DNA from: an uncultured Eubacteriales bacterium
GTDB lineage: Bacteria; Bacillota; Clostridia; Christensenellales; UBA1242
Reading direction: 5' to 3'
DNA: 64,000 nucleotides
Assembly: GCA_900552105.1 (NCBI GenBank)
Contig: URYH01000002.1
Span: 10,652-74,651 of the forward strand
Program-made: the position numbers and the translations under genes
In this document: piece after piece, positions 7,816 through 13,235 of the stretch
How the letters are laid out: the number at the start of each line of letters is the position of its first letter
How positions within the stretch are numbered: the stretch's first letter is position 1
The notes under the pieces: generated by a model
What the model saw: the letters and a program-made list of their open reading frames with translations, nothing else
What the model was told of the DNA's origin: nothing
Database searches by the model: none

Positions 7816-8104
7816 CTTTTCCCCCAGAATCCTTTATATCCCATAACTTATATTGTCCGTCAGGTTTTTCCCAATCACCTTCATAACCCAAAAAAAGTGT
7901 GCCATAACTCGCAAAGTCAAGTCCACGTTTTGCCTTTGTCTTTCGCTTTGTTTCTTCAATTTGTTTATGCAAATCGTTATATGACATGCCAACCGTCATG
8001 ACTTTGATTGGATTTTTTGGATGCTGTTTGTTATATTCACAAGCAAAAGCATCAATACCCAACAAAAACTCGGCATAAATTGCATCTTTTTGGTCTTCGG
8101 TCAT
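7796..8104 (-). CDS. hypothetical protein (102 aa from MTEDQKD...), or the C-terminal continuation of the LRR protein
   Basis: The ATG at 8104 overlaps the TGA of the upstream ORF, giving an ATGA junction. The same frame is also open further upstream, and it reads sensibly only from about NTIKVADA (~8128); the stretch from 8302 down to there looks like noise. See the finding at 8095-8140. Confidence 0.4.
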   Translation of the reverse strand: MTEDQKDAIYAEFLLGIDAFACEYNKQHPKNPIKVMTVGMSYNDLHKQIEETKRKTKAKRGLDFASYGTLFLGYEGDWEKPDGQYKLWDIKDSGGKDEKGRV

Positions 8105-10071
8105 GGCGTCGGCGACTTTAATTGTGTTAAAACAACATAGCCTTCGTTTTTGTTTATAAATGCTGTTGATTTTGCAACAGGAAGTCCATTTTGAGTTTTG
8201 ATTACGAGATTTTGAACATTTGGATTGACAAAATTGCTTCTTAAAATGCCATATCCCACATTTTCTAGAGTCGCACAACAATTGCAGTAATAACCCAAGC
8301 AAAAATTCATAGGGTCGTTTTTTTCAAGCCAATCAAAACCAAATTCTTTTGCATCACTTGTCAAACTCGCGTTTATATCCCCCGCAATTTGCAACCCAAG
8401 TTCAGCCAACTTTTGAGTTTGTTTTTTATACTTTTCAATGGTGTTGGTCAAATTGTTTAGATGAAAACCCAAGATGTTTGCAGGAATGTTGTTGTCGTGA
8501 TATTCTTTTATTATTCTTTTTGCTTGCTCAAAATCGTTTTGGTGCATGCCCGACCACTTTGATAGTTCATCAGCAATTTGTCGTTCTTCTTCGTTTGAAA
8601 CATCTGAAAACGCAATTTTTTCAAAAAATTCCAAAAACAACTCTACGGTTGGAATTCTATCTTTTTTCTTTGAGTGAACATCTCCGTTTTGGTCAATATG
8701 ATAATGCACAACAGCAAACATCAGTTTTCCATCTTTATTACGAAATCTTCCTCCAGGTTTAAGATCAGCATCTTGGTCACAATATTCAAGATAAATTTTG
8801 TTCAACAACAATGCATATTGATTATTTATTTTAATTTGATCAAACACAGAAACATTTGTGTTTTGATCTTTAGAAAACAAGAACTCAGAAAACTCTTTGT
8901 TTTCGCCAAGTGCTTTCCATTCTTTGAATTGCGTTGAACAATGCGTCACCTTTATTTCTTGTTTTAACAATCTTTCTTTGAGCCATTCAGTCGCTTTTTG
9001 TGCGAGTTTGCCGTCATTCGAAAAACACCCGATATCATATGCAAAGGTTAACAAACCTGTCAAATCGTCAACATCTCCCACATCTTTGACCAATGCTTGA
9101 ATTTGGTGGAAAAATTTGAAATTCGCACCACAAAAGTCATCAAATTTGCCTGCTTGTTTCAACTTGCAAATAAACGGCGTGGTGAGTTTTAAATTATTCT
9201 TTGATGCAATGTTGGCAATCTTTACATATTGCTCCAACTGGTTAAAATTTTTATCAAAACACAACAAGTCGTCCGATATTTCAAAATCAACAATGCTTTC
9301 AAAACAATTCGTCAAGTCAAAATGCTTTTTATATGCCTTCTTTTGTGGTTTTGACGAACATACAATTTCGTCATCATTTCCAATATAGATATGCCTTAAA
9401 TTACAATTTTTAAAAATACCTTCACCAAAATAACTCACTGAACTTGGAATGGTAATTCTTTCCAAAAAGTTACAGTTTTTGAAAGCAAAATCCTCAATTT
9501 CTTCCACACCAAAAGGAATGTCGACTTCAACCAAACTCGAACAATCACAAAATGCATTACTACCAATTCGCTTCAAGGATTTTGGCAATTCAATATTATT
9601 CAACAACTCACAACCTGCAAAAGCATAAGCGGAAATCGTTGTCAAACAATCCGACAATTCAACATATTGCAACCTAATGCAGTTTTGAAAAACATTTTTG
9701 TCAAGAAAATCACAACTGGACGGCATTATAAAACTTGACAAATTATAACAATTTCGAAATGTATTGGCAGCAATACATTTGATTTTGCCCATAATTTCAA
9801 CTGTTTGCAATTGTTCACAGTTTTCAAAAGCAGAATCTCCCAAATATTCCAAAGAACTTGGCAATGTCACACTTTTCAAATCAGCACAATACAAAAAAGC
9901 ACCCATATAAATTGTTTTGACTCCATTTGGCACCCTAATTTCAGAGATATCCAATCCTTCAAAACAAAAAGGGTCAAGCACTTTCACACCTTTCCAAAAT
10001 TCACTTGGATTATTTTTTAAGTCATACAAATCTTCTTTTCTCACATTTGACAAAGCATTTTTATTTCGCAT
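8101..10071 (-). CDS. BspA-type leucine-rich-repeat protein with a large uncharacterised C-terminal region and no signal peptide
   Basis: The N-terminal ~230 aa contain repeated units such as IxxxAFxxCxxLxxVxLPxSLxxIGxxAF (for example VKTIYMGAFLYCADLKSVTLPSSLEYLGDSAFENCEQLQTVEI). The remaining ~430 aa match no family I recognise. The protein contains a Cys-rich patch, FCLGYYCNCCATLENVGYG. Confidence 0.75.
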   Translation of the reverse strand: MRNKNALSNVRKEDLYDLKNNPSEFWKGVKVLDPFCFEGLDISEIRVPNGVKTIYMGAFLYCADLKSVTLPSSLEYLGDSAFENCEQLQTVEIMGKIKCIAANTFRNCYNLSSFIMPSSCDFLDKNVFQNCIRLQYVELSDCLTTISAYAFAGCELLNNIELPKSLKRIGSNAFCDCSSLVEVDIPFGVEEIEDFAFKNCNFLERITIPSSVSYFGEGIFKNCNLRHIYIGNDDEIVCSSKPQKKAYKKHFDLTNCFESIVDFEISDDLLCFDKNFNQLEQYVKIANIASKNNLKLTTPFICKLKQAGKFDDFCGANFKFFHQIQALVKDVGDVDDLTGLLTFAYDIGCFSNDGKLAQKATEWLKERLLKQEIKVTHCSTQFKEWKALGENKEFSEFLFSKDQNTNVSVFDQIKINNQYALLLNKIYLEYCDQDADLKPGGRFRNKDGKLMFAVVHYHIDQNGDVHSKKKDRIPTVELFLEFFEKIAFSDVSNEEERQIADELSKWSGMHQNDFEQAKRIIKEYHDNNIPANILGFHLNNLTNTIEKYKKQTQKLAELGLQIAGDINASLTSDAKEFGFDWLEKNDPMNFCLGYYCNCCATLENVGYGILRSNFVNPNVQNLVIKTQNGLPVAKSTAFINKNEGYVVLTQLKSPTP

Positions 10072-11726: not shown

Positions 11727-11753
11727 ACAAAAAAGCCGAGCATTTGCTCGACT
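11727..11753 (-). terminator. intrinsic terminator closing the tRNA transcription unit
   Basis: The minus strand reads GTCGAGCA-AA-TGCTCGGC followed by TTTTTT. This sequence differs from the four repeated terminators upstream of it. Confidence 0.6.
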
Positions 11754-11772
11754 TACTTAATGTATTTTCTTT

Positions 11773-12059
11773 ACAAAAAAACACCCTTTCGGGTGTGTTC
11801 TTTTGGTGGACTCCAACGAACGTTGTTTACAACACGAGAATCCCTCCCGTCCACCGTACAAAAAAACACCCTTTCGGGTGTGTTCTTTTGGTGGACTTCC
11901 CAGAACGTGTTTACAACACGAGAATCCACCCCCGTCCACTATACAAAAAAAACACCCTTTCGGGTGTGTTCTTTTGGTGGACTACTCAGAACGTGTTTAC
12001 AACACGAGAATCCTTCCCCGTCCACTATACAAAAAAACACCCTTTCGGGTGTGTTCTTT
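11773..12059 (-). repeat. tandem array with an 85/86/85-bp period: four copies of the tRNA-Tyr trailer/terminator interleaved with three 51-nt tRNA-Tyr-derived foldback units
   Basis: The block ACAAAAAAA(A)CACCCTTTCGGGTGTGTTCTTTTGGTGGAC occurs four times, with TGGTGGAC starting at 11804, 11889, 11975 and 12060. The foldback units are at 11804-11854, 11889-11939 and 11975-12025 (minus strand). Each reads GTGGACGGGG..GGATTC, then CGTG-TTGTAAA-CACG, then GTCCACCA. Confidence 0.9.
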
Positions 12060-12144
12060 TGGTGGACGGGGATGGATTCGAACCATCGAAGGCAGTGCCG
12101 GCAGATTTACAGTCTGATCCCTTTGGCCGCTCGGGAACCCGTCC
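12060..12144 (-). tRNA. tRNA-Tyr(GTA), class II long variable arm, CCA encoded
   Basis: GGACGGGTTCCCGAGCGGCCAAAGGGATCAGACTGTAAATCTGCCGGCACTGCCTTCGATGGTTCGAATCCATCCCCGTCCACCA. The acceptor stem is GGACGGG/CCCGTCC, the anticodon loop is CTGTAAA, and the T-loop is TTCGAAT. Confidence 0.95.
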
Positions 12145-12219: not shown

Positions 12220-12310
12220 ATATTTTGGGCGCCTCGAGCGAAACAAATGTTTCAGTCTGTCGCCTATTTTTGTCTCGCCACTTGCGTGTCGGCGAATTAA
12301 CCTTACGGCT

Positions 12311-12394
12311 TGGTGCCTTGGGGCGGAATCGAACCACCGACTTCCGTGAGATTTTGCAATCTCGTGTCGGTGCTTCTTTTTTCACACCTAAGAC
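12311..12394 (-). pseudogene. tRNA-like pseudogene: a copy of the tRNA-Phe 3' 31 nt fused to a GCA (Cys)-type hairpin
   Basis: 12311-12341 is identical to 12396-12426, the tRNA-Phe T-arm, acceptor 3' strand and CCA. Upstream is GAGAT-TGCAAA-ATCTC (a 6/8-nt loop, not the canonical 7) flanked by CACCGAC/GTCGGTG. The 5' segment GTCTTAG can pair 6/7 with CCAAGGC, but there is no canonical D-arm. Confidence 0.6.
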
Positions 12395-12395
12395 T

Positions 12396-12639: not shown

Positions 12640-12716
12640 TGGTGGACCTTCACGGACTCGAACCGCGGACCAACCGGTTATGAGCCGGTCGCTCTAACCA
12701 ACTGAGCTAAAGGTCC
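12640..12716 (-). tRNA. tRNA with CAT anticodon (elongator type; likely lysidine-dependent tRNA-Ile2, otherwise Met)
   Basis: GGACCTTTAGCTCAGTTGGTTAGAGCGACCGGCTCATAACCGGTTGGTCCGCGGTTCGAGTCCGTGAAGGTCCACCA. It has no initiator features. The C4/C5 acceptor positions and Ile-like body suggest Ile2, but sequence alone cannot settle the identity. Confidence 0.85.
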
Positions 12717-12978: not shown

Positions 12979-13052
12979 GCAGGTGTAGTTTAGTGGCAAA
13001 ACATCAGCTTCCCAAGCTGTGGTTGCGGGTTCGATTCCCGCCACTTGCTCCA
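12979..13052 (+). tRNA. tRNA-Gly(CCC), CCA encoded
   Basis: GCAGGTGTAGTTTAGTGGCAAAACATCAGCTTCCCAAGCTGTGGTTGCGGGTTCGATTCCCGCCACTTGCTCCA. The acceptor stem is GCAGGTG/CACTTGC and the anticodon loop is TTCCCAA. Confidence 0.93.
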
Positions 13053-13074
13053 AAAGACCTTTCGGTCTTTTTTT
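13053..13074 (+). terminator. intrinsic terminator after tRNA-Gly
   Basis: AGACC-TTTC-GGTCT followed by T6. Confidence 0.7.
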
Positions 13075-13235
13075 GTGGCGGCAATCTCGCAGACTTCGTC
13101 TTGCCAAGCTTTTTGCTTGTGACCCCGCAACACATTGCGGCTTGGCGCCCGTCTCTGCGGGTGCGTCAGCGGAGTCTTCTCTCCGTTCCGACTGCGTTTC
13201 CCGCCACTTGCTCCAAAAGACCGAATGGTCTTTTT
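13075..13235 (+). other. GC-rich 123-nt hairpin-rich insert followed by a second copy of the tRNA-Gly 3' end and terminator
   Basis: 13198-13222 (TTCCCGCCACTTGCTCCAAAAGACC) is identical to 13035-13059, and the terminator stem is repeated with a different loop. The insert (13075-13197) starts with GTGGCGGCAATC, which is the rc of the tRNA T-arm/acceptor region GATTCCCGCCAC with one mismatch. It holds five consecutive 4-6 bp hairpins and is far more GC-rich than its surroundings. Confidence 0.8.

Follow-up and report, generated by a model that had tools for sequence, protein, structure and literature searches.

A tRNA-linked repeat array between tRNA-Tyr and spoIIA in a Christensenellales bacterium, a probable minisatellite of terminator-bearing units

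The tRNA-linked repeats (TLRs) of Escherichia coli (Egan & Landy 1978 and Rudd 1999, both through PMC8144298) number 22 and are spread over ten loci that hold one to five apiece, and each of them carries at its 3' end 18-19 bp that are identical to the upstream tRNA or rRNA gene's 3' end (PMC8144298). The first to be seen, as that paper recounts it, was a 178-bp sequence repeated 3.14 times at tyrT (Egan & Landy 1978, through PMC8144298). Members linked to rrn operons, which lie between terminators T1 and T2, yield the small RNAs (sRNAs) RrA, RrB and RrF of rrnA, rrnB and rrnD; these have been shown to be expressed, have Hfq and CsrA as binding partners, and are found conserved throughout Enterobacterales (PMC8144298). 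Members linked to tRNA genes have no known function (PMC8144298) and, known in E. coli since 1978, have hardly been studied outside the enterobacteria; a search of full texts for the term gave two papers. Here we describe an array of related construction in an uncultured Eubacteriales bacterium (Clostridia; Christensenellales), within a stretch of 64,000 nucleotides that we call the window (assembly GCA_900552105.1, contig URYH01000002.1, positions 10,652 to 74,651, forward strand). In it, the 3' end of a tRNA-Tyr(GTA) gene and its intrinsic terminator recur in tandem between the tRNA gene and the operon spoIIAA-spoIIAB-sigF. Judged by its sequence, the array is a tRNA-linked repeat, a variant of the E. 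coli TLR architecture and its apparent counterpart in Clostridia. We consider it probable that it is a young, recombination-driven minisatellite of 85 bp that forms a terminator stack between the tRNA operon and spoIIA, and that its units have not been selected as tRNA mimics. The original prediction of this feature knew of no described class that fits it; the TLRs of E. coli are such a class, and we checked their published description on the K-12 genome (NC_000913.3).

According to ARAGORN, the tRNA-Tyr gene is the final member of a Pro-Met-Asp-Phe-Thr-Tyr cluster on the minus strand (12797-12060). The array begins 1 base past its CCA, on the same strand and in the same orientation, and Tandem Repeats Finder reports it at 11772-12067 with a period of 85, 3.5 copies and 93% matches. 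Directly 3' of the CCA encoded by the gene lies a trailer of 34 nt, with the hairpin ACACCC-GAAA-GGGTGT and then T7-8. This terminator hairpin, ACACCCGAAAGGGTGT (16 nt), occurs exactly four times in the window (at 11781, 11866, 11952 and 12037, against an expectation of 0.03), and the trailer copies follow each other at 85, 86 and 85 bp from start to start. The anchor TGGTGGAC starts at 11804, 11889, 11975 and 12060, and also at 12640, where it is the 3' end of tRNA-Met. Three units of 51 nt separate the trailers: between units 1 and 2 there are 4 differences in 51 positions, and unit 3 has indels. Units 1 and 2 open, at their 5' side, with an inverted match (17/18 in each) to the 18 nt that precede the CA of tRNA-Tyr, and all three close with a direct GTCCACCA, the copy of the last 8 nt of the tRNA. 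The repeating module is the trailer with its terminator plus a 51-nt spacer, inverted 18 nt first and direct 8 nt last, and among strains it is variable in copy number and mosaic. The four trailers with their spacing, the anchors and 51-nt units at their positions, the closeness of units 1 and 2 with the greater divergence of the distal one, the two inverted matches, and the CCA-containing direct copies at the ends of the window units had all been described in the original prediction and were borne out (Table 1).

With the TLRs of E. coli, this array has in common its tandem arrangement directly downstream of, and co-oriented with, a tRNA gene, which is tRNA-Tyr in both cases, and the reuse of the tRNA 3' end, including CCA, in every repeat. 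Copy numbers are also alike, with one to five repeats per locus there, and here three in the window and from none to at least five among strains. However, the two share no sequence homology: Rfam gave no RtT match at E <= 10, and the array is unrelated to the K-12 repeat. The unit measures 85 bp instead of 178 bp, every unit contains a complete intrinsic terminator, and the direct identity to the tRNA 3' end extends over only 8 nt instead of 18-19, the 18-nt match being inverted and at the 5' end of the unit. The hosts are an enterobacterium in one case and a member of the Clostridia (Christensenellales) in the other, and strain-level polymorphism in copy number is documented for the latter. 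In K-12, three 178-bp repeats follow tyrV, each ending in AATCCTTCCCCCACCACCA (19 nt of tRNA-Tyr), and the tyrT/tyrV repeat region is annotated rttR/tpr. Each of these 178-bp repeats (L222; such numbers are our labels for loci) also contains GGGGAAGGAT, the 10-nt reverse complement of the tRNA-Tyr 3' strand (ATCCTTCCCC), so that an inverted fragment of the 3' end is not unique to the Christensenellales units. The E. coli TLR has, in addition, a stretch that resembles the variable and T-arm region of the tRNA.

The behaviour of the array within the species can be followed in 20 further independent contigs, found by exact look-ups of SpoIIAA and SpoIIAB, plus the species representative, with counts covering 21 contigs. 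SpoIIAA is identical in many human-gut metagenome contigs; among GTDB representatives, it is 100% identical in the uncultured 'Clostridia bacterium' HGM11348 and 97% in a Christensenellales metagenome-assembled genome (MAG). There are no units in eight contigs (L002, L005, L009, L010, L011, L212, L218 and L219), one in four, two in five, three in two (the window and L007) and five in L213, and L221 has at least five, its contig ending inside the array. In the allele without an array, an unrelated terminator comes after tRNA-Tyr, together with a gene for desulfoferrodoxin (122 aa, PF01880) that has its own terminators, and the two alleles diverge exactly after ...GTCCACCAA, that is, at the tRNA's 3' end. 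A higher-order duplication of 170 bp in L213, where units 2-3 equal units 4-5, and two identical neighbouring units in L007 are as expected from unequal exchange. Altogether, 23 of the 31 units are distinct, and their variable blocks are mosaic across units. Decayed copies include terminators with the left arms ACACAC, ACACCT and a truncated GCAC, and a unit in which GTCAAGCA replaces GTCCACCA; one type of unit within the species, the distal one in L001, L008 and L221, ends in ...GCGGCA and has no CCA. In all this the array behaves like a minisatellite whose evolution proceeds by unequal exchange or by slippage, and it is dispensable, with eight of the 21 contigs lacking any unit. As to the desulfoferrodoxin gene, two copies of ATTTGACAAGAAA flank it, and in L218 it has an in-frame stop (TGG to TAG), with 74 aa called.

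An array of this kind could be suspected to be an artefact of short-read metagenome assembly, as tandem repeats are prone to assembly errors, an N gap interrupts the Phe repeats nearby in L001 (2128-2482) and L221 ends inside the array. Yet arrays are present in 13 contigs of the species, window included, from different studies and assemblers, and their units are diverged and distinguishable, with several strains sharing unit types at the same array position. Because arrays were recovered in many independent contigs, we give an artefact next to no credence. Many MAG contigs (L011-L090) stop within the tRNA cluster, at spoIIAA or a little upstream of it, and short-read assembly seems to be broken by tRNA-linked repeats. 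The locus, an apparent cause of assembly breaks, is also a hypervariable marker for typing strains of this species.

Between species, the comparison covered 79 loci from other Christensenellales species, with tRNA-Tyr inside the fetched DNA of about 45. These roughly 45 tRNA-Tyr loci have one ordinary terminator each, and an array is found only in a sister species (L012) whose SpoIIAA is 97% identical. Its units, 2.5 in number and 77 nt long, share the terminator hairpin and the inverted tRNA block (GGGACGGGGTGGATTC); the central hairpin reads CGC-GAA-GCG, and the units end in ...AGCGGCA, without GTCCACCA, CCA end or closing helix. Alignment of orthologous loci, which had been proposed as a check together with the prediction, hence shows no conservation of the array beyond this species and one sister species. 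In three species with the same order from tRNA to spoIIA (L040, L043 and L046), two terminators likewise lie in between, which makes double termination ancestral there.

A route to such an array is suggested by the succession of tRNA 3' end, terminator 1 and inverted 3' end, which forms a quasi-palindrome of about 72 nt with 31-nt arms, 77% complementarity and -44.9 kcal/mol, and which is kept in the sister species although the trailer sequence differs. Strand-switch or foldback copying would first have carried the palindrome of the terminator on into the tRNA 3' end, giving rise to the quasi-palindrome of about 72 nt. The block made of GTCCACCA and the terminator would then have been duplicated downstream, and unequal recombination or replication slippage between near-identical terminator blocks would have expanded and contracted the array since. 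An inversion model, with recombination between the arms of neighbouring terminators, was discarded, as it predicts an A-run, and not GTCCACCA, before the next terminator.

Several observations weigh against a minisatellite without selection on its units. The spacer observed is TTTTTTGTATA, and not the exact mirror GTTCTTTTG that the strand-switch model predicts. The central hairpin is paired in all 19 distinct units examined for covariation, and diversity along the unit is uneven, being lowest in GTCCACCA (0.026) and highest in a 9-nt linker (0.228), with the stretch GGATTCTCG invariant among units. Moreover, the copy numbers all come from short-read metagenome assemblies, which are prone to mis-count tandem repeats, and the gap in L001 and the break in L221 fall on the same side of the balance. 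The uneven diversity and the kept hairpin pairing could reflect some constraint beyond the terminators; the same pattern would be produced equally by gene conversion against the tRNA and by palindrome-templated repair. The uneven diversity is the only hint of constraint.

If the minisatellite has an effect on its host, it would be to supply, for both strands, a redundancy of terminators between the strongly transcribed tRNA operon and spoIIAA-spoIIAB-sigF, since every unit carries a canonical hairpin and U-tract. All four copies have a 6-bp stem with four G-C pairs, a GAAA loop and T7-8, with a predicted hairpin energy of -9.3 kcal/mol, and on either strand all four receive intrinsic-terminator-like scores. 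Terminator-like sites in the region number 10, where shuffles give 2.5 +/- 1.8, and a promoter scan placed no sigma-70-like site inside the array. The distal, non-repeated terminator next to spoIIA is kept in all array alleles. Redundant insulation of spoIIA from read-through of the tRNA operon would then be the only likely effect, and any benefit must be small because alleles with zero units and with one unit are common. Of the alternatives offered at the outset, a duplication scar and a stack of terminators come close to this conclusion; tRNA-mimic decoys found no support. In any case, the strains provide a natural allelic series, from none to at least five terminator copies, upstream of a sporulation operon. 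Open reading frames (ORFs) of 104-169 aa on the plus strand over the array were rejected as coding sequences, as they cross tRNA genes in antisense and their frame is broken by the 85/86-bp period.

According to the decoy proposal, each unit would be a CCA-ended minihelix with an anticodon-like loop, able to titrate the CCA-adding enzyme, tyrosyl-tRNA synthetase, RNases or the tyrS T-box. The units of the window can indeed form the 6-bp helix GUGGAC/GUCCAC, end in CCA and have GUA in the hairpin loop, and to this extent the predicted minihelix stands; in the sister species and in some units, however, both the helix and the CCA are gone. The supposed copy of the 7-nt anticodon loop fares worse. 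The minimum free energy fold (ViennaRNA) of the central hairpin has a 6-bp stem, CGUGUU/AACACG, and a 3-nt loop, GUA, and not four pairs and a 7-nt loop. Across units and strains the region of the loop triplet reads GTA, TGTA, GGCA, AGCA or GCA, with GAA (CGC-GAA-GCG) in the other unit type and in the sister species. The units fold no more stably than shuffles (z = -1.6, -1.2 and -0.5). ARAGORN called eight tRNAs in the window and none in the units, and the Rfam tRNA model had no match in the units at E <= 10; over the array, no Rfam family reached its gathering score. In alignments to tRNA-Tyr judged against 2000 shuffles, significance is reached by the inverted 18-mer alone (local score of 31 vs 12.9 +/- 2.1), and once the last 8 nt are removed, the global alignment of the unit falls below the shuffle mean.

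The covariation check that had been suggested for the units was run on the 19 distinct ones; pairing held in 85% of cells for the closing helix and in 100% for the central hairpin, and there was little independent variation. A single both-sided change (U-A to C-G) was found, in the central hairpin; accompanied by a deletion, it is a mark of the other unit type and too little to demonstrate a selected structure. The derivation of the array from the tRNA is real and limited to the two end blocks, of which only the inverted 18-nt copy is statistically tRNA-derived. With the array dispensable in eight of 21 contigs, the decoy proposal is largely refuted by the comparative data, and we regard it as very improbable. 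A reading of the unit as a tRNA-Tyr pseudogene was also rejected, as there is no similarity above shuffles outside the end blocks and the unit holds a terminator. The D-arm of tRNA-Tyr (CCCGAGCGGCCAAAGGG) resembles the terminator (CCCGAAAGGG), and the period of 85 equals the length of the tRNA-Tyr gene, also 85; both are possibly coincidences.

The allele boundary at the tRNA 3' end brings in a different origin, namely that the first unit is the remnant of the attachment site of an integrated element, left by site-specific recombination and later amplified. Here the 18-nt block spans the T-loop to the 3' end, which is the usual identity block of tRNA-targeting integrases, and the array and desulfoferrodoxin alleles diverge exactly at the tRNA 3' end. 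In the relatives L027 (251-1249) and L036 (1710-2852), a tyrosine integrase gene, with short direct repeats before it, lies convergent to and directly downstream of tRNA-Tyr (Pfam Phage_integrase, 28.4 and 27.4 bits vs a cutoff of 27.1). As the integrase genes of relatives adjoin tRNA-Tyr and its terminator, this tRNA would be an integration hot spot in the family. In two large viral contigs from IMG/VR, the final ~30 nt of exactly this tRNA-Tyr are present with no tRNA gene called, in an attP-like manner. Nevertheless, the 18-nt copy is inverted, which simple integration or excision does not yield, and searches of IMG/VR and of the phage and plasmid collections did not find the unit core. No integrase-like ORF was seen by eye among the listed ORFs within ~4 kb of the array (no Pfam scan), and local duplication is indicated by the two flanking terminators, which are near-identical. 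On balance, we find an integration scar unlikely. The same arrangement, direct repeats included, was seen by eye in L018, L024, L058 and L082. The ~30 nt of the viral contigs are TCGATGGTTCGAATCCATCCCCGTCCACCA, at ~940-990 of L227 (169 kb) and ~1600-1640 of L228 (122 kb), and have the look of an attP-type site or a prophage end.

Quasi-palindrome-templated mutation and arrays of bacterial interspersed mosaic elements (BIMEs) involve long imperfect palindromes centred on a hairpin and the tandem expansion of units with inverted motifs, and the Tyr array is alike. Its nested inverted repeats and tandem alternation could be taken for a dispersed mobile repeat, of the miniature inverted-repeat transposable element, repetitive extragenic palindrome or BIME kind, that happens to sit here. 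Unlike BIME arrays, it is confined to one locus, is built from the neighbouring tRNA, and has no associated transposase. There were no further matches to the unit core in the 64-kb window, and in the fetched DNA matches fell only between tRNA-Tyr and spoIIA; the scatter of the core away from tRNAs that the prediction had named as its refutation was not seen in either. The end blocks copy the adjacent tRNA, and not a dispersed consensus. On the window and the fetched loci, we consider a mobile repeat to be a very poor prospect. In metagenomes, the pattern ACGGGGN{1,2}GGATTCTCG (15 specified bases) gave at least 120 single chance matches, in soil, water and other samples, which agree in the pattern only by BLAST.

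The Tyr array is one of several tRNA-linked repeats in the cluster. At tRNA-Phe, the last 31 nt of the gene recur 31/31, 85 nt downstream. At tRNA-Gly(CCC), the last 18 nt (13035-13052) recur 18/18, and the terminator AAAGACC....GGTCTTTTT stands after each. The identity of 18-19 bp that characterizes the TLRs of E. coli is thus found in these two neighbours, and the Gly and Phe repeats of the window are of textbook TLR-like architecture. The Phe units are polymorphic among strains (a decayed form, one, two or at least three copies), and units like them are present in at least five other species (L016, L032, L048, L050 and L060), in each of which the 3' strand matches the species' own tRNA-Phe. 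tRNA-Met has decayed copies of 78 nt in L009 (one, 1756-1833) and L010 (two, 1601-1756) and none in the window; in these extra units the 5' half is scrambled, whereas the 3' end, the T-arm and the anticodon loop CTCATAA are retained, and ARAGORN makes no call. The Met and Phe units resemble decayed tandem copies of a tRNA, and the Tyr period, with its length of one tRNA-Tyr gene, invites the same comparison, but the Tyr unit contains a terminator and, without its last 8 nt, aligns with the tRNA no better than shuffles. In L001, a further repeat of the tRNA-Gly block seems to begin. In the spacer between tRNA-Phe and tRNA-Thr, TCTCGCCACTTGC (12273-12285, plus strand) is a 12/13 direct copy of the tRNA-Gly(CCC) 3' end (13036-13048), a stray fragment of the opposite-strand tRNA.

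The pattern at several tRNAs argues that the 3' ends of tRNA genes and their terminators are intrinsically prone to local duplication. The same phenomenon would have arisen independently in a distant lineage of gut Clostridia, at several tRNAs at once and with a copy number that varies among strains, and TLR-like repeats at four tRNAs in one such lineage are the part worth following up. A more ambitious proposal is that TLRs are not an oddity of E. coli and form a recurrent module of bacterial tRNA operons, represented here at tRNA-Gly, -Met, -Phe and -Tyr, from which read-through past the first terminator would release stable CCA-ended RNAs at a dose set by copy number; we hold this to be improbable. 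If true, it would amount to a new class of small RNAs derived from tRNA operons in Firmicutes, which could report the transcription of the tRNA operon just upstream of spoIIA.

The rrn-linked sRNAs are the model for such genes. The tRNA-Gly repeat (13053-13235) has, like RrA, RrB and RrF, the order of gene 3' end, first terminator, spacer whose last 18 bp copy that 3' end, and second terminator, and each Tyr unit has the same layout with a shorter copy. This corresponds to the rrnB T1-rrB-T2 layout with its repeated 3'-end motif (PMC8144298), and the tyrT/tyrV repeat region of E. coli carries the annotation of an sRNA, rttR. If the Tyr units were likewise genes for read-through RNAs, processed at their CCA ends and acting as regulators or as gauges of tRNA-operon transcription, the low variability of GTCCACCA and of the central hairpin stem, the least variable parts of the unit, would find an explanation. 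Unlike RrA, RrB and RrF, however, the present array is conserved in two species only. It is missing in eight of 21 strains and in all related species but one, the sister-species units have no CCA end, and the loop of the hairpin is not conserved. The unit folds no better than shuffles and has neither an Rfam family at gathering score nor an RtT listed at E <= 10. We therefore think it doubtful that the Tyr units are sRNA genes, and a terminator-bearing minisatellite remains the probable account of them.

Table 1. Features of the tRNA-Tyr locus and of neighbouring tRNA-linked repeats, in coordinates of the window
Feature	Position	Strand	Details
tRNA-Tyr(GTA)	12060..12144	-	85 nt with encoded CCA, source of the repeated 3' end; ARAGORN; Rfam tRNA 49.2 bits
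Trailer/terminator copy 1	12026..12059	-	AAAGAAC-ACACCC-GAAA-GGGTGT-T7-GTATA; hairpin 12037-12052; -9.3 kcal/mol (predicted)
Unit 1	11975..12025	-	Inverted 18 nt (12008-12025, 17/18), hairpin CGTGTT-GTA-AACACG, 9-nt variable linker, direct GTCCACCA
Trailer/terminator copy 2	11940..11974	-	T8; hairpin 11952-11967
Unit 2	11889..11939	-	Inverted copy 17/18; 4/51 off unit 1
Trailer/terminator copy 3	11855..11888	-	Hairpin 11866-11881
Unit 3	11804..11854	-	Most diverged; inverted copy has one deletion, hairpin one insertion, linker differs
Trailer/terminator copy 4	11772..11803	-	Array end; hairpin 11781-11796
Distal non-repeated terminator	11733..11754	-	AAGTCGAGCAAATGCTCGGCTT + T-run; just upstream of spoIIA promoter region
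spoIIAA	11312..11620	-	Anti-sigma-F antagonist, STAS domain; first gene of spoIIAA-spoIIAB-sigF
tRNA-Phe-linked repeat	12311..12395	-	85 nt: inverted 16-nt tRNA-Phe segment (12361-12376), small hairpin, direct 31-nt 3' end with CCA (12311-12341)
tRNA-Gly(CCC)-linked repeat	13053..13235	+	Terminator 13053-13072, 125-nt spacer, 18-nt 3'-end copy 13198-13215, terminator copy 13216-13235

Downstream of sigF, the window encodes an LRR_5-repeat protein (8101-10071, minus strand) whose longest ORF from an ATG has 656 aa, compared with 758-762 aa in other strains (L001-L010, from 4550 onward), which may be a difference in start codon or in length between the window and those strains.

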